IMG/VR virus record: IMGVR_UViG_3300027816_000069
Coordinates: 1 to 64,000 of that record
Strand: one strand, 5' to 3'
Length of the DNA stretch: 64,000 nucleotides
DNA from: a virus
This document shows, piece by piece, positions 10,701-51,011 of the stretch. Position 1 is the first letter of the stretch. Every line of letters starts with the position of its first letter. A program made the position numbers and the translations under genes. The notes under the pieces were generated by a model, which was not told where the DNA came from, did no database searches, and saw nothing but the letters and a program-made list of their open reading frames with translations.

Positions 10701-13700
10701 ACTTTGATTCACTTCTTCAGTAGTAAGACTACGATCTAAGTTAAGCTTATTAAATGTTGGTAAAAGAACATCGGTAAAATTACGATTAGTTATACTAAAA
10801 TCTTTAGCATTTTTAGTTATTTGTGTTAAGTTTTGATAGAACCGTGTGAGTTGTTCACCACTTTTTTGTAGATTGGTATTAAAAAATGACCATAAACTAG
10901 CCCCTATTTCTACTGCTGCTAAAGCAGTACCCAAGAATGGTATAGCCTTAGCAAAACTACCTAATACTTTAGTTGTGGCTCCAACGGCAGGACCAGCATA
11001 TCCTGCCATTTGTGATCTTCTAACAGTTCTAGCAGCATCTCTGGCTATATTAGAAAATGCTGATACCGCAGTAACAGTTGTTGCTAAGTTTGTTGTTAAA
11101 TTAGTTACTTCTTGACCCAGTATTTCAAAGTTTTCAAACATCATTATATTCTTGATGCTGGTTTGTATAGCAGTATCTAGTGACGAAAAGGTTTTTTGTA
11201 ATCGTTCAGCCGCTTCCATTCTTAATTGTTCTGAAGTAGCATTAGTTAAATCTTGCAAGTTCTTATCAAATAGTCCTAAAGCATCAGTATTCTTTAGTAG
11301 TGCCTTTTCTAGACTCTTAGCTCCTAGAGCAGATAATCCACCTCCTATAGCTCCACCAATACCCACACCTACTTGAGTATTTCTAATAGTCTTTTTACTA
11401 GCACCAACAGCTTGTCCAGCAATACCAGCACTAAGCACTAAACTACTAGCCTGTTGTGCTGCTTCACCAATAGTAGCACCAAAAGTTCCTATTGAACCAT
11501 TTAAGTTTTTAAATGATGATGCCATGCGCTCTATTTGCGGGATTAGTACACTGACCACAGCAGCAATAGCACCAGCGTTGCCACCAATGTTTTCTACTAT
11601 TCCACCACGACGATATCCAACAACACCACCCTTATTAAATCCTTGAACTTTATCAGCTTTATTTAATCTATTAAGATTACCATATCCAATTCTTTGTGCT
11701 GAGTTTTTATTAATAACAAATTCACCAGGAGTTAATAGTGCTGGCACGGTATCTTTACCGGATATTGATCCGCCACCAGCTCTTCTTGTTACTGCTGAAA
11801 CATTGGATACTCCTAATGCGTCAGCAACAGCACTTAATAAATTAATTTTAGTGCTTTCTTCTAATTTACCACTATTAATAAAGTTCTGAAAAGTGCCTTT
11901 ATTTGATAAAAATGCCCTAGGTGCTCCGACTGATGTTTTTAAATAACCAAATGTTTGATTAACGTCTGATAATTTTTGTGCTACGCCTTGACCTTGCCAC
12001 GCCGCCATCACAGAATCTAGTAATTGACCAGTTGATGATTTTCTCATAGCTCGATTTTGCGCTTTAAGAGCAGCTTTATTTTCAGCTTTAGTAAATGATC
12101 CTTTATTAATAGCTTTTAAAAATCTTTGAATCTGTCCTTTAAAATCTGATAAGTTTTTACCAGATCCGCCCACTGTTCTAGTGGCATCTGTGGGTATATT
12201 TGATGGTATATTAAATTTTTCACCAAGTGATCCAATACCAAAAGGAAAATCTATAGATTTAATACTTTCTGCTTTGTCTATATATGGAGCACCCAATAGT
12301 CCTAATGATGCTTCAAAAATACTTCCTATTGCACTTGCTAATGTTGACCCTTGTAGTACTTGTTTTTGTGTTGCTTGATTGACTATGGGCACATTTAATT
12401 GTTTTCCTATAGTATTAGCAGTATTCATAATACTGTTCTGTAATGATGTATTAATATTTTTTTCTATATTTTTACTAAATGTTTTACTCGTAACATCACT
12501 TAATGTTCCTATAAACACATCAAACGCTTTATTTCCGATAGGAAAACTTTCTTTTCTTGTTCCTTTTTGATTGCCAGACTTTAATGATACTAACCCAAAT
12601 TGATATCGTTTTTTATCTCCACTAGAATTAAGCATATTTTGTAATATCTTTTCTTCTGTGGTTAATGGTGTAACGATTCCAGCCCCAGCATACTTTCTAA
12701 TCATACCACCATTAGCAAATCTTTTTGCTGCCATACCACTAACTAATTTATCAATATTAATTGGCGAGTAATCAAAATCATCATAAGAATCTAATGCTTT
12801 ATTAACTGCTTGACGCAATCTTGTATTATGGAAAGTTTTAGCTAATGACCCTCCTCCTCTAACTGTTTTATAGTCAGCAAGTATAGGTTCTTGTAAACTA
12901 GACAATAAATAATTATCTATTGCTGAACCTCCACGAATCGCAGTCCAATTTTGATCTCTTGCAGCTACCTCATCAGTCTGTTTACTCATTTGTGCTGCTA
13001 GTGCCGATGCTCTAGTGCCAATAGAACTATTCTTAGTAAGTTGTTTGGCCGGAGTTCCAAATGGAGCAATTTTTTCTCTCCAAAATCCACGTTTACCCAT
13101 ATGAGTTACTAAATCAGATTCTAATTCTGGTATAATTCTTGATGATGGCACTTCTATAAATTCACTACCAATTGCCATACCAGATCCACCAGTAGTAAAT
13201 ATATTATAGGCTTGCTTTTTAGCATAAGAGATTAGTTGTGACGTTGTGAGCTGAGCCAATTCTGTATCGTCCAATTCTTTAAATTTGCTTCTGGCTCCTC
13301 TGGCTCCTGTTTTACCCCTTCCCTTGGGCATTCTTACGCCACCGGGCGAACCGCCCTCATACTTTTGAACATATCCACCCATGTTCATTTGAGCTAAATT
13401 ACTAGCGCCAATAGTTTCAACAGCTTTTTTACGAATAACAAATTCACCAGGAGTAAGCATTGCAGGATAAGTATCTCTATTGCCAGTGCCTGGAACTAAA
13501 CCTCCACTAGCAAATCGTCCAGCCGGTCTATTTATTAGTAAACTATTATTATTAACAATATTTTGATTAAGAGCTAAAACAGATTGATTAAGAATATTTA
13601 AGGTTTGTGCAAGAGAGGTGAGGGCATTGGTGTTGGCTGATAAAACTGCTCCAGTGACGCCTCCGCTGGGACCGCTACCACCAGTTGGCGACGGAGTTGC

Positions 13701-15257: not shown

Positions 15258-15344
15258 TATATACCTCCAAATACACAACTATCCACAGCAGTCACTAGGA
15301 CAGGTGTGGATAATTGCAATTGATAAAATAATTGTAAGAGAAAT

Positions 15345-16193
15345 TTATGATGCTTCTGCTGAAGATTCCTGTGTTGATTGTGTAGTCTCAGCATTATTAG
15401 TTTCCACTATAGGATTACCATTATCATCTAAAAATGGTTGAAAATCAACTATGTACTCACCACTATCATCAACCAAATTTCCATCCTTATCAACGAATTT
15501 TCCTTCTTCGTTAATATATCTCCCAAATTTATCAACTAATCTACCATCAGCGTCAACTAATCTACCCTTATCGTCTATGAGTTCCAAATTATCATTTACC
15601 AATTTATATTTGAGTAAAAATTTATTTTCTGGTAATTTTTTCTCATAGTCACTATCTAAACCATACATTAAAGAGGCTAATTTTTGAGCACCCAATAAAG
15701 CAACGGGGTCTGTTGACCTATTGAGGTAGTCGTCATAACTCTTAAAATATGGCTTCTTAGTATCATTATACACCACACATACCGAAACTAGATAATTAAA
15801 TCGGGCATTATCAGCTTGACCTTCGGCCGTATGAGTATCCAGATTAGTTTTAACAGAGATTAGTTCTCTTAGTTCATCTCTTAGGGTTTTAATCTCAAGG
15901 GCCATACCTTTGGCCTGTTTTAACGATATGCCACCCTTTGATAGCGCCTTATCCTTATCTGCTATTTGTTTTTGAATAGTAACAAATTGCACTTCTTTTT
16001 TCTCGTCCCATAGTCCTTGTTCTTTTAGTAAATCGTCTAGTCTGGCTCGGACTATAGAACCAGATTTTACAGCATCTGAAAAAGCCTGATTATAAATCTT
16101 TTGGGCCTCTCTTTGATCATGTAGATTAGTAGCTTTGATTTCAAACTCTTTATCATTACCATCTATATTTACAGTAAAAATAGTACTAAACAT
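15345..16193 (-). CDS. putative tail assembly chaperone with DxxGxLV repeats
   Basis: 282 aa, between tail tube and tape measure. Confidence 0.5.
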   Translation of the reverse strand: MFSTIFTVNIDGNDKEFEIKATNLHDQREAQKIYNQAFSDAVKSGSIVRARLDDLLKEQGLWDEKKEVQFVTIQKQIADKDKALSKGGISLKQAKGMALEIKTLRDELRELISVKTNLDTHTAEGQADNARFNYLVSVCVVYNDTKKPYFKSYDDYLNRSTDPVALLGAQKLASLMYGLDSDYEKKLPENKFLLKYKLVNDNLELIDDKGRLVDADGRLVDKFGRYINEEGKFVDKDGNLVDDSGEYIVDFQPFLDDNGNPIVETNNAETTQSTQESSAEAS

Positions 16194-26650: not shown

Positions 26651-28690
26651 TTATCTATATATGCCACCATAAATACCTTCTTCATTGGCGGCTGATGTAA
26701 ACCACTCAGGCCCTTTGTATAATTGGCCGCTTATCTTGCCACCATCCTTAGTGGATCCTCCTATAACATTATATTCTGGACCAGATAAAACCCTATTCAT
26801 TTGTCTTGCTAACATATTAGCAATTACCAAGGAGCTATATCGGTCTTTTCTTAATCTGCCTTTTCTGCCATTTGCCGTCTTTACTTCAGGAGTATCCCAC
26901 CGATCTCTTGATCCAGAAGCTCCACTAGTATGTGTCATTACAATCGTAGTTAATTCATTCTTTAATTCTTCTATTTCTAGAATACACTCACTTAAACTAT
27001 CATACAAGGGACTGCTGAGATCTGTAGCTAATATGTCCTTGCCTTCATTTTCTAGCGCTAAACCTAGTGTAAGATTATCAAATCGTGGAAACAATAAAGC
27101 TTTATCTTCCAAGTCTTTGCGTAATCCATGATTAGCCTGTGCTGTCCAATCTGCTCGTGCAAATTGTACCAGTTCTAAAATATGTAAACCAACCTGATTA
27201 TCTGTGTCCTTAGATTTATCATAATCAATAACTGGCCATATTAATTGTTCGCCATCATTTAAATTTTGAGGATCGTGTAAAGCTTCTTCAATAGCAACTC
27301 CACCACCTTGAGCGTCCATACCTATTCGCACAGGAGGAAAAGTATGCATTAAACTACGAATCTTTTTAGCACAAAAACTATAAAAATCGTGTTCTGCAAC
27401 TAATCCTGTTTTTTGTCTTTCTTTAAAATTACTTCTATTAGTAGTCCAACAATAGACAATGCGACTATGATCTTTATATAATTCTAGAATAACTATACTA
27501 AAATTGTCCTGTTCAGAGGCGGGATCAATACCATAAATATATTGTTTATTAATATCTCCTTTTATAGTAGCATCGAATACTACTTTACCACTCATGGGTA
27601 AGATTATATCCTTTTTATTGTCTGTAACACAACTTTCTATAAGGCTACGCTTAAAAAATCCATCGCTATCTGCTGTAAAACAAGCAGCATATTCCATATT
27701 ATATATACCAGTATGAATAGTTGCTTTGGCTCGTGCAACCTGTTTATCATCCATAAATCCTGTAGGTATTAATTCATATGGAATGCGGATAATACTATAA
27801 TCTTTCCAGTTAAAATTATTAGGAACTTCACCCTTAAAAATCTCCTCTAGTTTATGTTGATCTCCTTGGCTTTCTATAATAGCTTTATATCTTCTCCAAT
27901 AGCTAGCAAAATGTTTGAATGCATAATCAGCAGTGCCACTAATAATAGCCTGATTACCCATTTTATATTCTAGTGCTTCTAATTCATTATTCCATAATCC
28001 TGCTGCTTTCATCGCTTTCTTTTTCGCTTCTTCTTTAACATTCTGTATAGGACTAGCACTAACAGCAGCGAATCCTGAGACTACTGTTTCATAAATATCA
28101 GGACTAATACTAGCAAATTCGTCTGCAATAATAATATGTGCTCTAAGACCTCTAATCTTACTACCGTCGCCCATTGGGATAGCCACAGCCCAACTATCAC
28201 CAAGTCTGATAGTGCATCTGTCAACATCTCGTCGTGGACCATCATCATTACCATTAAAAATACTACGCAATATGGAACTAGTTCTCCATATATTTTCCAT
28301 ATATTCAAAGATAATTTTACTTTGACGAAAAGCCGCGCCCACAATAACTATTTTAGTTCCAGGATAAAATATGCATTTTAATACAGCATATAAGGCTAAT
28401 AAAAAACTTTTTCCCCAACCACGACTAGCAATATACATAGGAAATGGACGTATCCAAAATTCTTGCAGTATGGCTATTTGAATGGGGTGCAGTTCTATGC
28501 CAAATAATAATTTAACCGTCATACCAAAATATTCTGGATTTTTCATTAATCTTAATAGATGCAAATCGGGATTTTCTATATCATTCTTGGACCTATAGAT
28601 CATAGGGTTTTTAGGAATGATAATTTTTGATAAATCGCCAAGGCCAAGCCATGCGTCATCAAATATGTGTTTATCCTTGATTAAGCCCAT
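26651..28690 (-). CDS. terL: terminase large subunit
   Basis: Walker A ASRGWGKS, Walker B IIIADE, nuclease YGIDPASEQD, C-terminal KDRYSSL. Confidence 0.9.
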   Translation of the reverse strand: MGLIKDKHIFDDAWLGLGDLSKIIIPKNPMIYRSKNDIENPDLHLLRLMKNPEYFGMTVKLLFGIELHPIQIAILQEFWIRPFPMYIASRGWGKSFLLALYAVLKCIFYPGTKIVIVGAAFRQSKIIFEYMENIWRTSSILRSIFNGNDDGPRRDVDRCTIRLGDSWAVAIPMGDGSKIRGLRAHIIIADEFASISPDIYETVVSGFAAVSASPIQNVKEEAKKKAMKAAGLWNNELEALEYKMGNQAIISGTADYAFKHFASYWRRYKAIIESQGDQHKLEEIFKGEVPNNFNWKDYSIIRIPYELIPTGFMDDKQVARAKATIHTGIYNMEYAACFTADSDGFFKRSLIESCVTDNKKDIILPMSGKVVFDATIKGDINKQYIYGIDPASEQDNFSIVILELYKDHSRIVYCWTTNRSNFKERQKTGLVAEHDFYSFCAKKIRSLMHTFPPVRIGMDAQGGGVAIEEALHDPQNLNDGEQLIWPVIDYDKSKDTDNQVGLHILELVQFARADWTAQANHGLRKDLEDKALLFPRFDNLTLGLALENEGKDILATDLSSPLYDSLSECILEIEELKNELTTIVMTHTSGASGSRDRWDTPEVKTANGRKGRLRKDRYSSLVIANMLARQMNRVLSGPEYNVIGGSTKDGGKISGQLYKGPEWFTSAANEEGIYGGIYR

Positions 28691-43359: not shown

Positions 43360-43424
43360 TCTTTTTTTCTTAAGAATACTCTTGACAGACGCCGATCATA
43401 GGAGTATACTTAATACACAACCAT

Positions 43425-43507
43425 GCCGCTGTGGTGGAATTGGCATACACATGACACTTAAAATGTCACGCCTTATAGGCTTGCGAGTTCAAGTCTCGCC
43501 AGCGGTA
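43425..43507 (+). tRNA. tRNA-Leu(TAA)
   Basis: GCCGCTG/CAGCGGT acceptor, TGACA-CTTAAAA-TGTCA anticodon arm, long variable arm. Confidence 0.9.
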
Positions 43508-43567
43508 TTCTTTTTAGTCCGAATTGTAAACGCTCTATATAGTAGACACCAAAGCGTTTGAAATATT

Positions 43568-43614
43568 TGTTTTTCCCAATCCTTCGGATTTGGCTGGTGT
43601 GGCTGTAGTCAGCG
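43568..43614 (+). repeat. 47-bp motif copy 2
   Basis: Gapless match. Confidence 0.75.
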
Positions 43615-43690
43615 AAAGTTTAAAGGTCTTGACAAGGTTTGGTCGATAAGGTATAATAGAAACAACAAGACGCATAACTAAAGCGAAATA

Positions 43691-43775
43691 CCCCGATGTT
43701 CCACACGACTGACTGTAAATCAGTTGACATATTATGTGTGGCGGCTGTCAAGTGGTTCAACTCCTCCATCGGGGA
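43691..43775 (+). tRNA. non-canonical tRNA-Tyr(GTA)-like RNA
   Basis: CCCCGATG/CATCGGGG acceptor, ACTGA-CTGTAAA-TCAGT anticodon arm, no D stem, weak T stem. Confidence 0.55.
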
Positions 43776-43819
43776 TTAAAGGTCTTGACAAGCACTAGCC
43801 GATAAGATATACTACAAGC

Positions 43820-44233
43820 ATGAAACAGAAACCACTACATGCCGAAGTTCGATTCCATCTTGGTAAAGGTCAGTTTTTTAAGCATTGGCAAATCAAGATT
43901 GTACAAGGAAAAGAGAAGGTTGATGTTTACTATTGTGATCCTGCCTATTATCAATTAGAGATGATTGGGTGCAAATTAATCAATAAGGTTAATCAGGCTA
44001 AAAAGGTTCATGAGGCTGGCGTTAAGGATGTTACGGGGTGGGTTGAGTGTAGGGATGTTAGAATAAATAATGAAGTAGGGGTTGACAATCTTGAGAAATT
44101 ATACTACAATCCGTTGAGAGATCCGCACTGGCGTCGTGAAAGCGACAATAACGAGTTCATTTGGGATAATAGTGAATACGCTACTCTACTAACTAACGGC
44201 AAACAAGTTTATATTTTGGAAGAAAGGGTTTGA
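43820..44233 (+). CDS. hypothetical protein
   Basis: 137 aa, ATG just after promoter ~43784. Confidence 0.7.
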   Translation: MKQKPLHAEVRFHLGKGQFFKHWQIKIVQGKEKVDVYYCDPAYYQLEMIGCKLINKVNQAKKVHEAGVKDVTGWVECRDVRINNEVGVDNLEKLYYNPLRDPHWRRESDNNEFIWDNSEYATLLTNGKQVYILEERV

Positions 44234-44235
44234 AT

Positions 44236-44607
44236 ATGATCAAGTTGGAACTGACGGTTCGTGAGGCTATGAATCTGGCGACGAACTGCCACCTCGATAT
44301 CTATGAGCGGATTGTGGCCGCTTTTGAGGTTGCGTTGGGTGTGAACCAGCACAGGATGGTTACTATCACCGCTGGCATGACTCTTGATAACCGTGTTCCT
44401 TGTATCAAGGCTATCCGACTCCACGCCGGCTGGGGTTTTAAGGAGGCAAAGGAGTGGACGGATTTTCTGGTTGGCGGCTGGAAGTACGACAAGTGGCATC
44501 CTGCTTCTCCCAACGCCAAGCAGAGCATCACCCTCAAGACTCCGGAAGCGGCCGAGAATCTGCTGCGTGATCTGACCACTTTGGGTTGTGAGGGTTTTCT
44601 CTCATGA
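44236..44607 (+). CDS. ribosomal protein bL12 C-terminal-domain-like protein
   Basis: RVPCIKAIRLHAGWGFKEAKEWTD resembles the L7/L12 KxxxIKxVRxxTGLGLKEAKxxV motif. Confidence 0.65.
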   Translation: MIKLELTVREAMNLATNCHLDIYERIVAAFEVALGVNQHRMVTITAGMTLDNRVPCIKAIRLHAGWGFKEAKEWTDFLVGGWKYDKWHPASPNAKQSITLKTPEAAENLLRDLTTLGCEGFLS

Positions 44608-44619
44608 TCCAAACCCTGT

Positions 44620-44663
44620 CTGCCAAAATGGCAGCGGGGCCGGGCGATCTGCCAAAATGACAG
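44620..44663. repeat. 44-bp double-palindrome element 6
   Basis: CTGCCAAAATGGCAG-N14-CTGCCAAAATGACAG. Confidence 0.95.
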
Positions 44664-44846
44664 CATAAAAAATTCATGTATGATACTTGACAATGCCGAT
44701 GCTTAGTGTAGAATGATGTTATCACGAGACAAGACGCTGGTTGACTGCAACACAAAAAAGTTCAACCCAGCACTTGACAAGTGACGATAAGTGATGTATG
44801 ATTCGTTTATTGGTGGTTGATAACTCTTTTGGGAAAGGTTTTTACT

Positions 44847-45104
44847 ATGCGTACTTATGATTTTGCGGTTGCTGTTGCGTCGGACACTCTTGATACGGAA
44901 GTGGTTGAGGATACGATTCGTCAGGCTCTTGCCGATGGTCTGCCCGATGGTACTCTTGTGGTGGTCAAGGCCCAGGGTATCAAGGACTATAGCGAGCAGG
45001 GCTGGAAGGTTGCCCGTAATCGCAAGTTCGGTGTGAGTGTCAAGGAAGCCGGTGACGGTCACAAGGCTAAGACTACTAAGGTTGAGGCGGAGACTGTTGG
45101 CTGA
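44847..45104 (+). CDS. hypothetical protein
   Basis: MRTYDFAVAV..., two tandem upstream promoters. Confidence 0.7.
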   Translation: MRTYDFAVAVASDTLDTEVVEDTIRQALADGLPDGTLVVVKAQGIKDYSEQGWKVARNRKFGVSVKEAGDGHKAKTTKVEAETVG

Positions 45105-45170
45105 ACACGGTTCGGGAGTTATAATGTCCGATAGACCGCTGGTGGACGCACTGGCGGCTATCGGTATTTC

Positions 45171-45242
45171 GGCCCCATAGTTAAAAGGATATAACACGGG
45201 ATTTCTAATCCTGTATTAGAGGTTCGATTCCTCTTGGGGCTA
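45171..45242 (+). tRNA. tRNA-Arg(TCT)
   Basis: Cloverleaf, CGGGA-TTTCTAA-TCCTG. Confidence 0.9.
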
Positions 45243-45246
45243 TTTA

Positions 45247-45320
45247 GGGAGCGTAGATCAATCGGTTAGATCGCCAGCCTGTCACGCTGGAGGTTGCGGG
45301 TTCGAGTCCCGTCGCTCTCG
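45247..45320 (+). tRNA. tRNA-Asp(GTC)
   Basis: Cloverleaf, CCAGC-CTGTCAC-GCTGG. Confidence 0.92.
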
Positions 45321-45323
45321 CTT

Positions 45324-45367
45324 CTGCCAAAATGGCAGGCTCCGCGGCCGAACTGCCAAAATGGCAG
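45324..45367. repeat. 44-bp double-palindrome element 7
   Basis: Two perfect 15-mers, 14-nt spacer. Confidence 0.95.
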
Positions 45368-45441
45368 TTAAAATTTTGTGGATTCTTTCTCTTGACAAGC
45401 CGATAACGTAGTGTAGAATCACTAGCACAAGGGAGATAACC

Positions 45442-46146
45442 ATGAAAACTGCTGATGGTAACGACAAGTTGGGTAAGGGTTGCATTGTGGTTTCGCGTCC
45501 TGTTGGCGACACTTGCCCGTCAACGTGCGACTTTCTCAATAATGGCTGCTATGCCGAAGCCACCGAGAATCAGTATAAGAACGCTCGCACCGCGGGCTTT
45601 GCTAATGTTATTACCGAAAAGCATAAGATTCGTGCTATGATTCTTGATGCTATCAAGCGTAATAAAAGCATCCGCTGGCATGAGCGTGGCGATTGGTTTC
45701 TCAACGGCGAACTTGATACCAACTATGTTGAGAATGTAACGTGGGCGTGTGAGAGTGTTCTGGCCGATGGTATTAGTCTGCCTAATATGTGGTTTTATAC
45801 TCATATCTACGATAGTCGGCTTGTTGTACTGGAAAAGTATATGGCCGTCTATGCTAGTATTCATAATGCAGAAGATAGGGCTGCTGCGGTGTCTGCCGGT
45901 TTTAAGTTGTTTGCGTGGTGCGATAGTGATACTAAGATTGCTCCCAAGCGTCCAAAGAGTAAGGCCAAGGCCGATGCGTGGCGTAAGGCTTTGCCTAAAC
46001 TGGTAATTATCGAAGATGTCAAGTATGTTGTTTGCCCCGAGATTCGTCGTGGTCGATCAGTTATTACTTGTACTGGTACTAAGGATAGTATTAGTTGTGA
46101 TATGTGCGTCAAGGGTTTGGCTAACGTACTATTTCCTGCCCACTAA
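45442..46146 (+). CDS. Cys-motif protein, gp88-like
   Basis: TCPSTC...GCYA, IRWHERGDW, WFYTH, C-terminal CPE...C...CDMC. Confidence 0.55.
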   Translation: MKTADGNDKLGKGCIVVSRPVGDTCPSTCDFLNNGCYAEATENQYKNARTAGFANVITEKHKIRAMILDAIKRNKSIRWHERGDWFLNGELDTNYVENVTWACESVLADGISLPNMWFYTHIYDSRLVVLEKYMAVYASIHNAEDRAAAVSAGFKLFAWCDSDTKIAPKRPKSKAKADAWRKALPKLVIIEDVKYVVCPEIRRGRSVITCTGTKDSISCDMCVKGLANVLFPAH

Positions 46147-46158
46147 AAGGATATAACA

Positions 46159-46401
46159 ATGGCTAAGTATTATGTTAATAGTGGTACGCTTCAAGTGATT
46201 ATGGACCATAGTGATCCTCTTGAGGCTGGAGTGGCCGGATTCCTAATGACTAACAAGATGGATACAATAGATGAGTATTTTTATATTGATGAGCGTGGTT
46301 TTCGTGATTATGTCAGTGCTGATAATGGTACTAACGTAATTCCTACTTCTAGCATTATTCGTGCCGCCGAATCCGAATTGACGGATGACACTCTGCCATA
46401 A
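46159..46401 (+). CDS. hypothetical protein
   Basis: AAGGA RBS. Confidence 0.7.
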   Translation: MAKYYVNSGTLQVIMDHSDPLEAGVAGFLMTNKMDTIDEYFYIDERGFRDYVSADNGTNVIPTSSIIRAAESELTDDTLP

Positions 46402-46436
46402 TGGCAGGGCGGCCGGGCGATCTGCCAAAACGGCAG
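46393..46436. repeat. 44-bp double-palindrome element 8
   Basis: CTGCCATAATGGCAG-N14-CTGCCAAAACGGCAG. Confidence 0.95.
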
Positions 46437-46501
46437 TTAAGTTTCTGGTACGATTGGCCGATAATTCTTTCATGGACAAGGGTTTGACAAGGAGGGTTAA
46501 T

Positions 46502-46864
46502 ATGCTACAATGGATTGGCGTTGCGTTGACTGCTGCTGCTTTGGTGTATACGGGTGTTAAGGATTATCAAAAAGGGGATATAAAAATTCCTCCCCTAAAT
46601 AAAAATTTGACAACTCCTAAGTATCCTGTACAATATTGTTTAATGGCGTATGACCCTAACCTAGATAGGATTTTTTACCTTCACGAAAACGGACAATGGT
46701 ATGATCATCCCCCACAACAACGACGATATGCGGCCACGTCGCAAGTACAACAGTATCAAAATCAAAACCAAGCAGCGGTGGGAACTTCCTACGGGTCACA
46801 GGGAGGAGCGGTATACGGTTATGGACAATCGGCCCAAGCGTCAACGTACCCGCAGCGATATTGA
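46502..46864 (+). CDS. membrane-anchored hypothetical protein with Gln/Tyr-rich tail
   Basis: AGGAGG RBS, N-terminal hydrophobic helix. Confidence 0.5.
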   Translation: MLQWIGVALTAAALVYTGVKDYQKGDIKIPPLNKNLTTPKYPVQYCLMAYDPNLDRIFYLHENGQWYDHPPQQRRYAATSQVQQYQNQNQAAVGTSYGSQGGAVYGYGQSAQASTYPQRY

Positions 46865-46895
46865 CAGGAAGTGGCGTAAGGAGTATGATATATAG
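46728..46895 (+). CDS. small Arg/Lys-rich protein
   Basis: MRPRRKY...DNRPKRQRTR; overlaps previous ORF in another frame. Confidence 0.5.
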   Translation: MRPRRKYNSIKIKTKQRWELPTGHREERYTVMDNRPKRQRTRSDIDRKWRKEYDI

Positions 46896-46976
46896 GTTAT
46901 TCTTGGTTTGAGTCATGACAAATCGAGAAGATAGTTTATGAGGGTATTCTATCTTTAAATAAAAACTATCCTCTTT

Positions 46977-47049
46977 GCCGGTATAACTCAGTTAGCAGAG
47001 TGTCAAATTTGTAATTTGAATGTCGTGGGTGCAAATCCTACTACCGGCT
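46977..47049 (+). tRNA. tRNA-Thr(TGT)
   Basis: Cloverleaf; atypical T-loop TGCAAAT. Confidence 0.85.
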
Positions 47050-47082
47050 CTAGGAATTGAAATAAAAAACGGTGAATAATGC

Positions 47083-47155
47083 TGCCCGGTAGCTTAACTG
47101 GTAAAGCTGTTGACTTTGGATCAACTGAGTCTAGGTTCGAATCCTAGCCGGGCAT
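47083..47155 (+). tRNA. tRNA-Gln(TTG)
   Basis: Cloverleaf, GTTGA-CTTTGGA-TCAAC. Confidence 0.92.
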
Positions 47156-47164
47156 ATGATTTAT

Positions 47165-47236
47165 ACACGGGTAGCATAATGGTAATGCCCCAAACTGTTA
47201 ATTTGTCAGATGTAGGTTCGAATCCTACCCCGTGTG
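47165..47236 (+). tRNA. tRNA-Asn(GTT)
   Basis: Cloverleaf, one anticodon-stem mismatch. Confidence 0.85.
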
Positions 47237-47245
47237 CTTAGTTTG

Positions 47246-47316
47246 ATTGGCGTAGTTCAACGGTAGAACGACGGTCTCCAAAACCGTAGATGGGGGTTCG
47301 ATTCCCTCCGCCTTTG
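47246..47316 (+). tRNA. tRNA-Trp(CCA)
   Basis: ACGGT-CTCCAAA-ACCGT; two T-T mismatches in acceptor stem. Confidence 0.75.
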
Positions 47317-47318
47317 TT

Positions 47319-47405
47319 GGAATCTTGGCCGAGTGGTTTAAGGCAGCGGTTTACTAAGCCGCCGAGGGTTAAAATCCTCCACAGGTTCGAATCCTGTAGA
47401 TTCCG
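47319..47405 (+). tRNA. tRNA-Ser(ACT)
   Basis: GGAATCT/AGATTCC, GCGGT-TTACTAA-GCCGC, long variable arm, G73. Confidence 0.88.
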
Positions 47406-47407
47406 TT

Positions 47408-47487
47408 GGTGGATTTCCAGAGCGGCAAATGGGCCTGACTGTAGATCAGGTGCTTCGGCTTCGGGGGTTCGAGTCCCTCATCCACCA
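47408..47487 (+). tRNA. tRNA-Tyr(GTA)
   Basis: Canonical cloverleaf, CCTGA-CTGTAGA-TCAGG. Confidence 0.92.
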
Positions 47488-47537
47488 CTAAACTTTTACT
47501 TGACAACGGTCGATAACAAGGTATAATCCCACAACAC

Positions 47538-47613
47538 GGGGCGTAAGGTAAGCCGGTTGCATCCGTCACTCTTATAAGGTGATCTTAGGTACGTTCGACT
47601 CGTACACGCCCTA
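47538..47613 (+). tRNA. tRNA-Ile(TAT)
   Basis: GGGGCGT/ACGCCCT, TCACT-CTTATAA-GGTGA, A73. Confidence 0.8.
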
Positions 47614-47652
47614 CTTATATGTTTCGGAGGCTGACGTTTGAGTTGCGAGTGT

Positions 47653-47725
47653 GGCCCTATCGTCTAACGGTTTAGGACTTCGGATTTTCGTTCCGAATAT
47701 CGGGGTTCGAATCCCCGTAGGGTCA
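47653..47725 (+). tRNA. tRNA-Glu(TTC)
   Basis: Cloverleaf, TCGGA-TTTTCGT-TCCGA. Confidence 0.9.
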
Positions 47726-47766
47726 CTTGACAAAACAATCTGGCGAGGTACAATAAGGCTAAATAC

Positions 47767-47839
47767 GGGTCATTAGCTCAATTGGCAGAGCAGCATCCTT
47801 TTAAGTTGTAGGTTGTAGGTTCGAGTCCTACATGACCCA
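47767..47839 (+). tRNA. tRNA-Lys(TTT)
   Basis: Cloverleaf, one anticodon-stem mismatch. Confidence 0.87.
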
Positions 47840-47887
47840 TTGACAGCGGACGGTGTTTGGTGTATAATGCGATTAAAGGAGAGTTTT

Positions 47888-48046
47888 ATGTTTCATGGCG
47901 AGTATGAGAATTATGAAGATATTGTAAAAGACTCAGACGAACTCTTTTCGTATGATGATGACCACAGTTATGAAACTAATCTCTACGATGAAAGAGAATG
48001 GGACAATTACTATCATATTTTGGCCGATGAAATAGTGGAAGAATAA
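47888..48046 (+). CDS. small acidic protein
   Basis: AAGGAG RBS, promoter at 47840; stop TAA overlaps the cassette-array junction. Confidence 0.7.
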   Translation: MFHGEYENYEDIVKDSDELFSYDDDHSYETNLYDEREWDNYYHILADEIVEE

Positions 48047-48134
48047 CACTCAGGACCAGGAGCGGCTCGCAGCCGCAGGAGGACGACATGATTTCAGACG
48101 TTGACGCGAGTCCGCTGCATCGTCTTGGTTCGCA
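48041..48134 (-). repeat. attC site A (degenerate)
   Basis: Plus strand GAATAAC...GAGCGGCTCGC...GCGAGTCCGCTGCATCGTCTTGGTTCGCA. Confidence 0.65.
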
Positions 48135-48459
48135 GAAGCAAAGGGGTAGCGAAATGCCGGTGTCTTGGAAGTTGGTAGAGAACTGCTCTGGTAAGGTTTT
48201 GCGGCGGTCAAAGAACCGCGTATTTGTTGCGGGCTGGCGTCGCGTCATTGGGGCAACGGTTGTGCCGGCGTGCATTCTCCCGTCAGTGGGCCAGCACGTG
48301 CGGTTCGGTTCTTTCGATTGGGAGGTAGTGCGTGTTGAGCAAGTTGAGTGCGACTACGACCCTTCTTATCTGTACCGCGTCGATCTTGTGATCCGCGACG
48401 AGAGCGGAAAGCCAGTAAACTTCGCGAGCGGAATATCAAACCTCTGCCTTGACGGCTGA
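48088..48459 (+). CDS. cassette 1 hypothetical protein
   Basis: AGGAGG+ATG inside attC A (alternative ATG 48154); TGA inside the TGAGAAC core. Confidence 0.65.
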   Translation: MISDVDASPLHRLGSQKQRGSEMPVSWKLVENCSGKVLRRSKNRVFVAGWRRVIGATVVPACILPSVGQHVRFGSFDWEVVRVEQVECDYDPSYLYRVDLVIRDESGKPVNFASGISNLCLDG

Positions 48460-48505
48460 GAACGCCAGCGATCAGCGGCTCGTCCGCTGCGTCGCGTGGT
48501 TATGG
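48457..48505 (-). repeat. attC site B (49 bp)
   Basis: Minus strand AAC-CACGC-GAC(G)CAGCGG(A)CGAG-CCGCTGATC-GCTGGC-GTT. Confidence 0.8.
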
Positions 48506-48515
48506 AGACACACAC

Positions 48516-48683
48516 ATGACAATCACTCAAATAATCGGCGTTGCACTGACCTCATCCCCATTTGCGGGCGTTGCGGTGTTGTGCCACATGCACGGCGGCT
48601 GGCCCGCCGTTGCTGTAGTGTTTGGGGCGACCGGAGCCGTTGTTGCTGTTATCGCACTTGGGTGCCGACTTCTGGTTACATAA
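48516..48683 (+). CDS. cassette 2 small membrane protein (55 aa)
   Basis: GGAG RBS; MTITQIIGVALTSSPFAGVAVL...GAVVAVIALGCRLLVT; TAA inside the ACATAAC core; not in ORF track. Confidence 0.7.
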   Translation: MTITQIIGVALTSSPFAGVAVLCHMHGGWPAVAVVFGATGAVVAVIALGCRLLVT

Positions 48684-48766
48684 CGGCTGCGATCAGCGGC
48701 ATCGAACACAGGAGCGACCATGACGAAAGAGGTAGATGAGATGTCCGCTGCATCGCGTGGTTCTGC
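48678..48766 (-). repeat. attC site C (89 bp)
   Basis: Same arms as B with a longer central loop containing AGGAG...ATG. Confidence 0.8.
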
Positions 48767-49019
48767 GGTGATGGCCTACGCCGTGATTGACGACGAGGGC
48801 GTGCAGCACTCGCTGTGGTTTCTGGAAAAGGACGCGACGAGCGAGGCCGCGATGGTCGGTGGGACTGTGGTGCGGCTTGGCCACCCCACGCTCACCGACG
48901 AGGAGCGGGAGGCGTTGGAGTACGGCATTAGGCAAGCCGACGAATACGACAGAGTAGGGCTTGAAGACGCAAAGCGCGCCGCAATTGTGTTTCGCGGCCT
49001 GCTGGAACGACTAGGCTGA
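48720..49019 (+). CDS. cassette 3 protein (LTDEEREA family)
   Basis: Starts in attC C loop, stop in TGAGAAC. Confidence 0.7.
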   Translation: MTKEVDEMSAASRGSAVMAYAVIDDEGVQHSLWFLEKDATSEAAMVGGTVVRLGHPTLTDEEREALEYGIRQADEYDRVGLEDAKRAAIVFRGLLERLG

Positions 49020-49066
49020 GAACGCTTGCGATCTGCGGCGCAGTCCGCAGCATCGCGTGGTTCTCA
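49017..49066 (-). repeat. attC site D (50 bp)
   Basis: Compensatory change CTGCGG/CCGCAG versus CAGCGG/CCGCTG in B and C. Confidence 0.8.
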
Positions 49067-49083
49067 CAGGCATGGAGACAGAC

Positions 49084-49311
49084 ATGAGGCCGACACCAAT
49101 CGGACGGTTTGCTGACACGCCCTCATACGAGGAGTTGCAGCGAGAGGTTGCCCGCCTGCGGCTCACCGACGAGGAGCGGGAGGCGATTGAGCGGCTGTGC
49201 GAGGCCGCCAATGACATAATCTACGATGACAGGACGGCCGGTGGAAGCCACTGGCAAGAGGACGAGGCGGCGGTTGCTGTGGCTCGCGGCCTGCTGGAGC
49301 GGACGAAGTGA
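49084..49311 (+). CDS. cassette 4 protein (LTDEEREA family)
   Basis: GGAG RBS; stop in GTGAGAAC. Confidence 0.7.
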   Translation: MRPTPIGRFADTPSYEELQREVARLRLTDEEREAIERLCEAANDIIYDDRTAGGSHWQEDEAAVAVARGLLERTK

Positions 49312-49416
49312 GAACTCTTCTTCACGGATGCAACTTGGTGGGACAAGTATCTATTATAGGCAACTAGCCTTTCTTATTCCTTTCTTATACGTTCGAATCG
49401 TATCATCCGTGCTGTT

Positions 49417-49908
49417 ATGAATATACTACATCAGAAACTAGAAGATCATCGAGTTACTCCAGACGGCCAATATATTAAGGGTTGTAGCCATACTACAAAA
49501 GTGCTAAATCATAAGCACAGAAATTCTATAATCATAAAGGCCATTTGTGATTTGCGTAAGATAACTGATGAGTTTGATAGTATAGCCTGCTGTGGTATTA
49601 GTGGTTTGATGGTTGTTCCACAAATTGCTGAACTGCTGAATAAACATATTATTGTTATTCGTAAGAAAAACGAGGAATGTTATTCAAATTTTTTTATGGA
49701 AGGTGTTACTCCTTGGAGGTACATAATAATTGACGACCTTATTTGTTCTGGCAATACTTTTAGGCATATCACAAGCACTATCTCAAATGACTACCGCAAG
49801 GCTCAGTGTGTAGGACTCTATTGCTATATGCCAGAAGAATGTTCATATAATAAAGATAATATTAAAGAATTTGAACGAAGATTCCGTACTCAACTATTAA
49901 ACGTCTAA
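49417..49908 (+). CDS. type I phosphoribosyltransferase-like protein
   Basis: PRPP-binding loop YIIIDDLICSGNT. Confidence 0.75.
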   Translation: MNILHQKLEDHRVTPDGQYIKGCSHTTKVLNHKHRNSIIIKAICDLRKITDEFDSIACCGISGLMVVPQIAELLNKHIIVIRKKNEECYSNFFMEGVTPWRYIIIDDLICSGNTFRHITSTISNDYRKAQCVGLYCYMPEECSYNKDNIKEFERRFRTQLLNV

Positions 49909-49925
49909 AAGGGGGTCCGCATATC

Positions 49926-49969
49926 CTGCCAAAACGGCAGGGCGGCCGGCCGATCTGCCAAAATGGCAG
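49926..49969. repeat. 44-bp double-palindrome element 9
   Basis: CTGCCAAAACGGCAG-N14-CTGCCAAAATGGCAG. Confidence 0.95.
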
Positions 49970-50063
49970 AAAAAATTTCCTCAATTCTGGCTGTTGACAA
50001 GACGATATCATAGTGTAGAATCAGTGCATCGGAACGAAGAACGCTATCACGAAAGGGTTGACA

Positions 50064-51011
50064 ATGCCTGCTGCTGTTGAAAAGATGATGTTTGTTGGTG
50101 CTACGCCTTGGCACGGTCTGGGCAATCAGTTGGATGAGGCTCCGTCGATTGGCGAGGCGATTACCGCTGCTGGTTTGGATTGGGAAGTTGGATTGAAGGA
50201 CTTGCAGACTGTGGACGGTGTGCCGGTGTCGCATCGTGCAACGTACCGCAAGACTGATGGTAGCATCCTTGGAGTTGTGGGTCCGCGATATACTCCGCTC
50301 CAGAATCAGGATGCGTTTGATTGGTTCCAGCCTTTTCTGGATGCTGGCGAGTGCAATCTGCATACCGCCGGTTCGCTCCATAGTGGTCAAAAGGTTTGGG
50401 TGCTTGCTCAACTCAACCGCGACAATAGCGAAATTGTCAAGGGTGATGAGGTCTGCAAGTTTATTCTGCTGAGTAATAGTCACGATGGAACAACGGCTAT
50501 TCGTGTCGGATATACCCCGATCCGCGTGGTCTGCGTGAATACGCTGGCTGCTGCTCATCACAACAAGGCTAGCAAACTGATTCGGATTCGTCACACTCGC
50601 TCCAGCAAAAATAATCTGGATAATGTGCGTGATATTATGGACAATATCAACGCTGAGTTTGAGGCTACTGCCGATCAGTTCCGGTTTCTTGCTAGCAAGA
50701 GTTTCAACCAGAATGATGTTCGTCGATATGTCAAGACGGTGCTGGGCATCGAAGGTACGCCGGATGGCGATATCAAGACTCGCACCCGGAATATCATGGA
50801 CGAAATTCTTGCACTAATCGAAGGTCCGAAGCAGAGTGCTGCTGGGGTTCGTGGAACTTACTGGGCCGCTTATAACGGTTACAATGAGTACCTGAATTAT
50901 AACAAGGGTCGCACGACCGATAATCGGCTCGACTCTCTCTGGTTCGGTCAAAATGCTAATGATAATCTCAAGGCACTGAATGTGGCTATGGAGTTTGCTA
51001 ACGCGGTCTGA
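50064..51011 (+). CDS. DUF932/TIGR03299-family phage-plasmid protein
   Basis: TPWHGLG, AGLDWEV, TAGSL, NSHDG, TPIRVVCVNTL, GTYWAAYN motifs. Confidence 0.85.
   Translation: MPAAVEKMMFVGATPWHGLGNQLDEAPSIGEAITAAGLDWEVGLKDLQTVDGVPVSHRATYRKTDGSILGVVGPRYTPLQNQDAFDWFQPFLDAGECNLHTAGSLHSGQKVWVLAQLNRDNSEIVKGDEVCKFILLSNSHDGTTAIRVGYTPIRVVCVNTLAAAHHNKASKLIRIRHTRSSKNNLDNVRDIMDNINAEFEATADQFRFLASKSFNQNDVRRYVKTVLGIEGTPDGDIKTRTRNIMDEILALIEGPKQSAAGVRGTYWAAYNGYNEYLNYNKGRTTDNRLDSLWFGQNANDNLKALNVAMEFANAV

Follow-up and report, generated by a model that had tools for sequence, protein, structure and literature searches.

How did a GC-rich block of hairpins and small ORFs come to stand in an early region of a lake-water phage whose surrounding DNA is AT-rich, and which machinery could have put it there? 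We addressed this question in a 64-kb window, the whole stretch of DNA analysed (64,000 nt), which forms part of a 122-kb phage record. We conclude that the island represents four integron-type gene cassettes, most likely inserted once, via a circular molecule, at a secondary site of the phage, and we put the probability of this reading at roughly three in four. The initial annotation of the locus had interpreted the block as attC-type cassettes, and three independent lines of evidence support that interpretation: arrays of the same hairpin family adjoin genuine integron integrase genes (intI) with canonical polarity at four of four loci; unit ends are complementary beyond the GTT/AAC triplets in 50 units from other phages; and relatives of this phage have an empty site while both boundaries of the island fall on AAC.

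The island and its limits

The island is a 1268-nt insert (48047-49314) with a GC content of about 0.6, against about 0.4 around it. In 200-nt windows, GC ranged from 0.51 to 0.655 across 48000-49299 and from 0.32 to 0.46 on either side, bearing out the earlier description of a GC-rich island in AT-rich DNA. The insert is composed of four units, each consisting of a hairpin and an ORF (Table 1). Both junctions sit on AAC triplets, by direct reading as well as by alignment. At the left limit, homology to the hairpin family begins at the AAC itself (alignment A2). At the right limit, the AAC closes the motif GTGAGAAC (49308-49315), which is complementary at 8/8 positions to GTTCTCAC (49060-67). 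TCTT stands behind this AAC, and it is likewise found after the same gene end in L107 (labels beginning with L or G are our handles for other sequences) and in a loose contig end; the crossover can therefore be placed no finer than AACTCTT, and microhomology is possible there. A megablast of 47000-50400 against the phage collection gave no match.

Table 1. Features of the island and its flanks, with positions in the window. Scores in bits are from covariance model R1; z is the fold score as ssDNA.
Feature	Position	Strand	Remarks
Promoter-like site TTGACA-17-TATAAT	47840..47868	+	12/12 consensus matches
Small acidic phage ORF	47888..48046	+	Kept in relatives; TAA stop at 48044-46 overlaps the left AAC
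Left junction AAC	48045-47	+	Overlaps TAA stop (48044-46) of the upstream phage ORF
Site A, degenerate attC-like	48045..48130	+	'CAGGAG'-subtype left arm, standard right arm; AAC 48045-47, GTT 48128-30; z -0.48
Cassette 1 (C...AA; site A + ORF1)	48047..48462	+	5' part of ORF1 92% identical to L094 from 48147
Site B, 49-nt attC-like hairpin	48457..48505	+	AAC 48461-63, GTT 48499-501; 70.9 bits; z -1.83
Cassette 2 (site B + ORF2)	48463..48683	+	ORF2 48516-48683, 55 aa, hydrophobic
Site C, long-loop attC-like hairpin	48678..48766	+	AAC 48682-84, GTT 48760-62; 52.7 bits; z -1.13
Cassette 3 (site C + ORF3)	48684..49022	+	48679-48908 86.7% identical to L090
Site D, 50-nt attC-like hairpin	49017..49066	+	AAC 49021-23, GTT 49060-62; 66.7 bits; z -4.16
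Cassette 4 (site D + ORF4)	49023..49314	+	ORF4 49084-49311, 75 aa
Right junction GTGAGAAC	49308..49315	+	AAC 49313-15; phage sequence resumes, with no hairpin behind
Phosphoribosyltransferase-like phage gene	49417..49908	+	phrog_2068, E 7e-14

Hairpins B, C, and D belong to one site family

Two repeat families run through the island, one for the right arm (n=4, at 48110, 48482, 48743, and 49043) and one for the left arm (n=3, at 48454, 48675, and 49014). Read directly on the plus strand, sites B, C, and D consist of AAC, 6 nt, an arm, a loop, an arm with one extra C, 5 nt, and GTT, which matches the layout that had been described for the minus strand (AAC, 5 nt, the stem, 6 nt, GTT). We built a covariance model, R1, from 72 sites in other phage contigs; it contains no sequence from the window and is a model of this family, not a general attC model. 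When we searched the 64-kb window with R1, it recovered B (E 7e-20), D, and C, together with a weak partial match inside the island at 48593-48609 (10.9 bits, E 0.85). Outside the island, it gave no match in the window and none at E <= 1 in the other 58 kb of the genome. Site A was not matched by R1, even with the filters off. When folded as ssDNA, D was equalled by 0/200 shuffles, B by 7/200, C by 25/200, and A by 64/200, and the minimum-energy fold of A was not an attC-like hairpin; its right-arm repeat is 70% identical. The initial annotation had counted four related hairpins, and this stands for B, C, and D as members of the R1 family, while A fails both the fold and the model. A compensatory base change that it had pointed out in D proved real at the level of the family: of the 72 sites, 57 have A-T at this pair, 11 have T-A, and 4 leave it unpaired. 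Standard pairing holds for the three triplet pairs in 64-70 of the 72. A search of 47800-49600 with Rfam gave no relevant match.

In its passages on attC structure, Nivina 2016 (PMC5027507) describes the triplet as the only stretch conserved in all attC sites, places the cut within the bottom-strand AAC, just before the C, and the extrahelical bases on the arm facing the triplet, and gives 57 bp as the lower limit of attC length. B, C, and D are imperfect hairpins with AAC and GTT as their outer triplets, and on the plus strand they have an extrahelical base opposite AAC and 5-6-nt spacers. Given this cut position, the island ends where its strand geometry predicts. Several details depart from the usual form. 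The recombining strand has C as its extra base, where G or T is usual, and the stem has 5 bp, not 6, between its two unpaired bases. The R-box consensus RYYYAAC/GTTRRRY is fitted by the triplets alone, the family consensus being ..GAGAAC and GTTCTG... B and D are 49 and 50 nt long, as had been noted earlier, and so lie below the published range of 57-141 bp, inside which A and C fall at about 90 nt. With three R1 matches within 612 nt and no recombinase in the record, the locus has the composition of a CALIN; a complete integron would have intI and attI on one replicon, and no intI was found in this record.

The family as a whole is varied in its loops, which measured 5-7 nt in 134 of 220 detected sites (a set in which some are chance pairings) and can reach 44-47 nt and longer. 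Sites A and C carry a ribosome-binding site and a start codon within the hairpin loop: in A these are AGGAGG (48077-82) and ATG 48088, and in C, whose loop is of the type we call L1, they are AGGAG and ATG 48720, followed by a conserved leader. Among 14 distinct copies of L1, the loop ATG opens a frame of at least 60 codons in 13, leading into varied proteins, which indicates that the hairpin goes with the downstream ORF.

The exact hairpin pattern was present in 101 viral contigs, nearly all of them GC-rich, and in 3/185,579 species genomes. The cassettes of the island come from a pool that GC-rich lake phages carry very commonly. One carrier, G005, was identified as a phage in PHROG scans by a terminase (phrog_9, E 2e-116), a portal, and a head protease. 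Between carriers, the spacer next to AAC tended to follow the upstream unit, being shared by 28/55 pairs having the same upstream unit and by 22/69 pairs having the same downstream unit (baseline 0.23), and loop type was linked variously to the upstream or the downstream unit; the pairs are not independent, and they mark no single crossover point. This mixed linkage of variants inside the hairpin indicates that homologous exchange within hairpins also occurs.

Unit ends are complementary across the family

A further property of attC cassettes found here is complementarity between the R boxes at the two ends of a unit, the mark left when a circular form has been cut at the triplet. By direct reading, the ends of the four island units pair at 7/8, 6/6, 5/5, and 8/8 positions. 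From the window alone this evidence is modest; its weight comes from a family-wide test, in which 50 distinct units from other phages had a mean complementary run beyond the triplet of 3.08, compared with 1.72 +/- 0.21 for shuffled units, and 0/2000 shuffles reached the observed value. Among units shorter than 400 nt, 23/28 had a run of at least 4. The two flanks of a single hairpin gave a mean run of 1.65 and are not complementary beyond GTT/AAC. Complementary unit ends, which had been claimed earlier for this locus, therefore hold both for its four units and in the 50-unit test.

Arrays of the family adjoin integron integrase genes in bacteria

We found arrays of the same family beside integron integrase genes in a Cyanobium-labelled genome and in genomes of a Pirellulales-labelled MAG's order. 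On contig G055:C39, the IntI gene at 10050-10982 (+) scored 457 bits against TIGR02249 (cut-off 265) and matched PDB 2a3v at E 6e-89, a family hairpin at 13781-13831 (-) scored 75 bits, and three more hairpins lie on that strand; in the same array, a duplicated cassette has a canonical attC of roughly 100 nt, with plus as its top strand. At all four linked loci (G055:C39; G055:C13, which has an IntI fragment; G183:C155; and G183:C230), the 'top' strand, as marked by the unpaired bases, points away from intI, which is the canonical polarity of attC arrays. Three genomes of the Pirellulales-labelled MAG's order had 8-15 matches each, and 3/3 encode IntI above the cut-off; genomes of this order are the richest bacterial reservoir we found. 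In the native array L231, plausible ORFs lie in both orientations.

The phages themselves present a different picture, with integron integrases above the cut-off in 0/47 carrier viral records. For the phage under study, the initial annotation had reported no integrase nearby, and this extends to the rest of the record: the tyrosine recombinase family PF00589 gave 0 matches across all 122 kb. As the record is 88% complete, such a gene may lie in the missing part.

Related phages have an empty site

We used the phosphoribosyltransferase-like gene downstream of the island as bait to collect relatives, and we kept 80 of the 91 related stretches found. Any part of 48060-49300 was matched in 0/80 of these loci. 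Both flanks were present in 52/80, and in 43 of those 52 the interval between them was shorter by 1223-1267 nt. In the relatives, the stop codon is directly followed by the sequence found here after 49315, and the alignment resumes from 49313-49326; the ancestral target is read from relatives only 66-75% identical. For the same phage lineage, two flank-pattern scans of viral contigs gave no empty-site copy, and the sole match in a metagenome scan was a contig that likewise carries the island. No empty-site contig was seen among the read-run contigs, which drop rare variants, and the block was identical in 4 runs with no sign of turnover. A comparison with related phages had been proposed as a check for variable cassettes: the boundaries do lie at AAC, but the block is fixed here, not variable.

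Contig 'joints' at hairpins (e.g., 48479 to 48743) have sides of at most 30 nt and/or a gap of unstated content; we rejected them as excision in this phage and read them as hairpins of other organisms. The island of L125, a jumbo phage with a GC content of 0.53, was considered as a second junction test and set aside, being without clean limits.

A proposed route of entry and the alternatives

We propose that a circular molecule of four cassettes was inserted, most likely in a single step. The target would be a secondary site of the phage, G|TT on the minus strand and AA|C on the plus strand, just past the stop of the small early gene. With no recombinase encoded in the phage record, this reading requires an integrase supplied in trans, most plausibly by a chromosomal integron of the host. 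The gene psbA (PF00124), which could have marked a cyanobacterial host, is absent from the phage record.

A block of this kind could also have been copied from a co-infecting GC-rich phage or prophage by microhomology-guided illegitimate recombination, without an integron integrase, the hairpins being merely places of DNA breaks or of replication template switches. The overwhelming preponderance of phages among the carriers would fit such copying, AAC(TCTT) may be common to donor and target, and both the hybrid hairpins with their mixed linkage and site A, a mismatched hybrid, speak for non-site-specific exchange within the family. However, the two ends of the island fall on the same triplet of two sites, so it holds a whole number of units, which random breaks would be unlikely to produce with units of about 300 nt. 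The microhomology at the left end is just AAC, and the integron polarity beside intI at four of four loci also argues against illegitimate copying, which we consider unlikely.

It is less probable still that the hairpins are sites of another recombinase, either the ~290-aa Xer-like enzyme of GC-rich phages or host XerCD, and that their likeness to attC is convergent. Tyrosine recombinases do occur in 16/23 carrier records (13 above the Pfam cut-off) and in 5/6 carrier records with at least 90% completeness, and the short form of the site, with a loop of 5-7 nt between arms of 11 nt and 12-13 nt, looks like a double-stranded core site. In the two records mapped, however, the enzymes are encoded 13 kb (G004) and 44 kb (G005) away from the arrays, and the best PDB match of the one queried was lambda integrase (E 4e-4), so that these recombinases look like ordinary lysogeny integrases. 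Loops of at least 44-47 nt fit folded single strands, not a fixed double-stranded spacer; the island ends at AAC and not in a loop; and the same sites adjoin true IntI genes.

We regard as very improbable the view that the hairpins are primarily RNA-level or regulatory elements (processing sites, mRNA 5'-3' panhandles, or translation modules) and the cassette pattern a by-product. The L1 loop does provide the signals for translation and a conserved leader, complementary unit ends would let processed mRNA ends pair, and the hairpins have no T-run behind them; but this leaves unexplained the insertion into a phage with no such site, the limits at AAC, and the arrays beside intI. An RNA-level role could instead be an added function of the cassettes.

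Finally, we give practically no weight to an assembly chimera: although repeats break short-read assemblies, Logan contigs stop at hairpins, and L201 begins within site C, the island and both of its junctions are bridged by contigs from 4 runs of 4 studies with 0 differing letters, which shows that it is not an assembly artefact, and at least 93% of the sampled words are present in 20 runs of 11 studies. One more metagenome contig has the identical right junction.

Relation to known systems

The PeSL of T4-type phages are mobile cassettes bounded by promoter and stem-loop, thought to move by homologous recombination between repeats, and they resemble the present units in having a conserved stem-loop ahead of each small early-region gene, shuffled among phages. 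They are not known to have AAC/GTT boxes, complementary unit ends, or any connection with an integrase.

Phages with parts of integrons have been described earlier, and the closest published precedent, as presented in the sections of Qi 2023 (Front Microbiol, PMC9892861) that concern phages, is the set of 17 CALINs (clusters of attC sites lacking an integron integrase) detected in phage genomes with IntegronFinder; GTT-type boundary motifs are proposed to have aided incorporation. Carriage by phages has been reported only as rare, with 21 phages in that paper. Those loci and ours share at least two attC-type sites with cassettes in an intI-less phage, virulent phages included in that survey. 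Compared with what is described there, the present case has one site family in at least 101 viral contigs, sites down to 49 nt, ORFs lying on the strand that recombines, and relatives with an exact empty site.

Insertion of cassettes at secondary sites is treated in the work on attG, where the target has only a short GWT consensus cut after G (bioRxiv 10.1101/2022.09.11.507474). The inferred phage target is similar in its G|TT on the minus strand; that work concerns E. coli chromosomes with IntI1, IntI2, and IntI3, whereas here the target is a phage and the insert has four cassettes. By direct reading, the hotspot motif given there (CRGM at positions 6-9) is absent from the phage target. Sedentary chromosomal integrons, as outlined in the attC passages of Nivina 2016 (PMC5027507), likewise have similar sites within one pool, complementary R boxes, and variable terminal structures, some of a few nt and others long, branched loops; the pool found here differs from that outline in being common to bacterial arrays and many phages.

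Integrons are regarded as devices of bacteria, yet the one site family described here is common among lake phages and also forms arrays beside intI, so that phages appear to draw on a gene-exchange system of bacteria, and in one case the insertion can be compared with its empty site nucleotide by nucleotide. This makes three matters testable: whether a host integron integrase acts on phage DNA during infection, whether 49-nt sites are functional attC, and why the orientation of phage-borne cassettes turns attC into the gene's 5' leader.

A broader picture can be sketched which, taken with all its parts at once, strikes us as possible but somewhat doubtful. Lake phages and integron-bearing hosts, probably planctomycetes of the Pirellulales-labelled MAG's order, would share one pool of cassettes. 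Its minimal attC, at ~49 nt shorter than any described, would stand at the 5' end of an inverted gene, and the long-loop attC would double as ribosome-binding site, start codon, and leader. Temperate GC-rich phages would stockpile cassettes in arrays of nine or more, from which unrelated, AT-rich, recombinase-less phages might gain blocks at a bare GTT via the host integrase during infection. If this is true, the integron would be a means of two-way gene exchange between phage and host, and the cassettes that are kept could be infection or counter-defence genes.

The cassette genes and their expression

The plus strand has the geometry of a 'bottom strand' (AAC in the 5' arm, extra base opposite), which places the island ORFs on the recombining strand and makes the cassettes 'inverted'. 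Inverted cassettes occur in chromosomal integrons. ORF1 spans 48088-48459 (123 aa) or 48154-48459 (101 aa), and ORF3 spans 48720-49019 (99 aa), with the motif TLTDEERE...RGLLERL; ORF3 is paralogous to ORF4 (repeat families D3 and D7). The stretch 48457-48700 is 90.7% identical to L095, L125, and L149, all of which have a different next hairpin and downstream neighbour, and 48996-49315 is 79% identical to L142. None of the four ORFs had a significant match in Pfam or PHROGs, and in the ESM Atlas they fall in unnamed, mostly viral clusters with scores of at most 0.81. ORF4 has 89 homologues, none of them named, and Pfam gave no match for two homologues and an integron-borne relative. The wide spread of the site family also marks about a hundred small unnamed phage gene families as mobile and, being mobile, as probably adaptive.

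On the plus strand within 48047-49314, we found no promoter-like site. All four ORFs are oriented with early transcription from the promoter-like site at 47840, the nearest one upstream, which could drive them via read-through.

Structure of the island and its genes

The initial annotation had described a sharply GC-rich island in AT-rich DNA with four related hairpins (sites A–D). The contrast in composition was borne out, GC content being 0.51–0.655 across 48000–49299 and 0.32–0.46 on either side. A repeat finder recovered a right-arm family of four copies and a left-arm family of three. For sites B, C, and D, direct reading of the plus strand agrees with the AAC/GTT layout described initially: after four or five bases that differ from unit to unit comes AAC, separated by 6 nt (by the count used in that annotation) from the first arm; the loop follows, then the second, complementary arm, which bears an additional C, and, after a further 5 nt, GTT, with unit-specific bases again behind it. 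A covariance model built from 72 family sites of other phage contigs, with the window sequence excluded, scored B, D, and C at 70.9, 66.7, and 52.7 bits; it missed site A and found nothing in the 122-kb genome outside the island. Site A combines a left arm of a CAGGAG subtype with a standard-type right arm; it therefore cannot fold and did not stand as a fourth hairpin. Being the terminal site, A may have decayed, and such decay would lock the block in place. Single-strand folding (z of −4.16 for D, −1.83 for B, −1.13 for C, and −0.48 for A) is only partly convincing as evidence for the hairpins.

The island splits into four C...AA units of 416, 221, 339, and 292 nt. Four ORFs, all on the plus strand, occupy the intervals between hairpins, each with its stop codon in or beside an AAC box. 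The ribosome-binding sites of ORF2 and ORF4 lie immediately past GTT, and the loops of A and C themselves hold a ribosome-binding site and an ATG. ORF2 encodes a 55-aa hydrophobic peptide, and ORF3 and ORF4 are paralogues within a widespread small family with TLTDEERE and RGLLER motifs (89 homologues, none named). In sequencing runs X1–X16, summed contig depth was severalfold higher over the TLTDEERE motif regions than over the flanks, with dozens of contig ends left loose and running into other sequences; the lakes of these runs contain many further cassettes of this gene family. A 205-kb phage with GC 0.53 (L125) has TLTDEERE-family genes without hairpins, so the family has members outside cassettes too; between them, at 2540–2570 and 4520–4550, sits an intergenic motif of its own, TGTCAAGTT...GCAAA...AAAC.

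The viral record, whose first 64 kb make up the window, is linear, 122,350 bp long, and estimated to be 88% complete. A promoter-motif scan found no promoter-like site inside the island; all four ORFs could be read from the perfect-consensus site at 47840. The uptake of DNA of at least 60% GC by a phage that is itself AT-rich and encodes tRNAs suggests a host far GC-richer than the phage.

Features of the phage record around and within the island (window positions)
Feature	Position	Strand	Remarks
Large terminase	26651–28687		Together with the tRNA genes and promoter-like sites, marks the record as a phage
Twelve tRNA genes	43424–47839	+	Just 5′ of the island; include tRNA-Ser(ACT) and tRNA-Ile(TAT)
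Sigma-70 consensus promoter-like site	47727–47754	+	11/12 matches; between tRNA genes and small acidic ORF
Sigma-70 consensus promoter-like site	47840–47868	+	12/12 matches; between tRNA genes and small acidic ORF
Insert	48047–49314		1268 nt, ± shared triplet
ATG in loop of site A	48088	+	Follows AGGAGG
L1-type leader	48700–48765
ATG in loop of site C	48720	+	Follows AGGAG
TLTDEERE motif regions	48839–49240

The island is an insertion with ends at AAC

With the phosphoribosyltransferase-like gene downstream of the island serving as bait, we gathered 80 related phage loci, none of which had a match within 48060–49300. Both flanks were present in 52, and in 43 of these the flank-to-flank interval was 1223–1267 nt shorter than in the window; in the other nine, either another tRNA is paired or the small ORF is not the same. 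In the relatives, the sequence found 3′ of 49315 in the window comes immediately after the stop codon of the small acidic ORF. Alignment with three long-loop family members showed family homology beginning exactly at the AAC of site A, and homology to a donor-type cassette (L142) ends at 49315; together these edges define the insert. The TCTT behind the right AAC recurs as the spacer behind the same gene end in locus L107 and in one loose contig end, which limits the resolution of the crossover to AACTCTT. At least 93% of sampled words of 47700–49700 were present in 20 runs from 11 studies (2017–2025; lake and freshwater metagenomes), and contigs bridged both junctions in four runs of four studies with no differing letters. 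We conclude that the island is not an assembly artefact and is fixed in the window phage. The comparison with related phages raised initially yielded an empty site. No variant of the array was seen in the window phage among contigs of these runs.

The hairpins belong to a probable attC family

A strict pattern derived from B, C, and D found 117 sites in 101 viral contigs, all but five in loci with GC of at least 0.60; it occurred in just three of the 185,579 species genomes scanned. In carriers the sites are clustered as arrays of single orientation, with at least eight in 4.2 kb in G004 and at least nine in 6.8 kb in G005, which is a genuine phage, encoding a terminase, a portal protein, and a head protease. 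The compensatory change noted in D recurs across the family, one stem pair being A-T in 57 of the 72 model sites, T-A in 11, and unpaired in four. Hairpin-internal variants show mixed linkage and there are a few mismatched hybrid hairpins, indicating that homologous exchange within hairpins also reshuffles the pool. Loops fall into two classes, 5–7 nt (134 sites) and 44–47 nt (31 sites), the long ones sorting into conserved types. In 13 of 14 distinct loops of one long type, L1, the loop ATG starts a reading frame of 62–129 codons that crosses the right arm and continues into unrelated proteins, so the hairpin goes with the downstream ORF. The L1 leader, roughly M-T/A-x-E-V-D/N-E-M-S-A-A-S-R-G-S, is conserved and fused in frame to these proteins (L090, L094, L097, L108, L109, L111, L114, L121, L133, L148, L160, and the window); judged from sequence, the L1 loop appears to be a portable translation-start module within a recombination site.

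Linkage to intI, complementary unit ends, and the cut position support the identification of this family as attC and, with it, the initial reading of an integron-type cassette array. The complementarity of unit ends proposed for the island was recovered in 50 distinct units of other phages, in which bases past GTT are complementary to those preceding the following AAC (run length averaging 3.08, with shuffles at 1.72 ± 0.21 and 0 of 2000 reaching the observed value); flanks taken from one and the same hairpin are not complementary (mean run 1.65). Runs of 4–7 occurred in 23 of 28 units shorter than 400 nt and in 4 of 22 longer intervals; the latter probably conceal undetected sites. The cut predicted from geometry, between A and C of the plus-strand AAC, is the position of both island ends.

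In a Cyanobium-labelled genome, the one pattern match shares a 15.8-kb contig (G055:C39) with an integron integrase (TIGR02249, 457 bits, cut-off 265; PDB 2a3v IntI4, E 6e-89), and four family hairpins, all on the minus strand, lie 2.1–3.2 kb past intI. Its array also has a duplicated cassette with a canonical ~100-nt attC whose unpaired bases mark the plus strand as top strand, in agreement with the layout that Nivina 2016 (PMC5027507) gives for top strands. In all four contigs that have both hairpins and intI (G055:C39, G055:C13, G183:C155, and G183:C230), the strand inferred to be the top one runs away from intI. Family matches occurred in 7 of 141 genomes in the order of a Pirellulales-labelled MAG, three with 8–15 matches in arrays and all three with IntI above cut-off, and in only 2 of 141 genomes from the taxonomic family to which the Cyanobium-labelled genome belongs.

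On G055:C39, intI and array run in the same direction. The motif GGTGGTTCACGGAC occurs twice just past the intI 3′ end (10995–11130), once within a palindrome, making this a candidate attI with integrase-binding repeats. The first cassettes (11190–12700) are AT-rich (GC ~0.40) within a 66% GC contig, so the array mixes cassettes of very unlike composition. The duplicated cassette (14200–15720) is 762 nt long, in tandem, each copy with its own attC, and may encode a MazF/PemK-type toxin.

A host integrase acting in trans is the simplest reading

The absence of an integrase near the array extends to the whole record, which has no match to the Pfam tyrosine recombinase domain, and none of 47 carrier phage records has an integron integrase above cut-off. 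Ordinary-looking tyrosine recombinases are encoded by 16 of 23 carrier records searched, GC-rich ones; none was found in G018 and G045, two lower-GC large carriers among the 23. In the two records with both mapped, recombinase and array are 13 kb (G004) and 44 kb (G005) apart, and the one GC-rich carrier recombinase queried weakly matched lambda-integrase sequences. A common family of ~290–340 aa with conserved GERIG, KFH.IRK, and LDH/LGH...Y motifs occurs in GC-rich carriers (L182, L183, L184, L203–L211); the best NCBIfam matches of this family are XerD/XerA, far under cut-offs.

The simplest reading is a host integron integrase acting in trans. It would recombine attC × attC on prophage-borne arrays and attC × a bare G↓TT site on the window phage; attC × bare-site insertion has been shown experimentally for bacterial chromosomes (bioRxiv 10.1101/2022.09.11.507474).

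Departures from textbook attC sites

Published attC sites span 57–141 bp, whereas B and D have only 49–50 nt, below the minimum as the initial annotation had pointed out. Unlike the consensus RYYYAAC/GTTRRRY, the family boxes agree in the triplet only. The extra base on the recombining strand of the island sites is C, and the two unpaired bases are five base pairs apart instead of six. Integron components have been described in phages before: Qi 2023 (PMC9892861) reports 17 CALINs (clusters of attC sites lacking integron integrase) in phages and recombination by IntI1 of five of six phage attC sites tested. Relative to the literature searched, the new points are how large the family is in phages, sites of sub-minimal length, attC apparently serving also as translation leader, and the base-by-base legibility of a multi-cassette insertion in a phage lacking a recombinase. 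In contrast to textbook cassettes, all four island ORFs lie on the recombining strand (inverted); one native bacterial array has plausible ORFs in either orientation, so the inversion belongs to the island cassettes and not to the whole pool.
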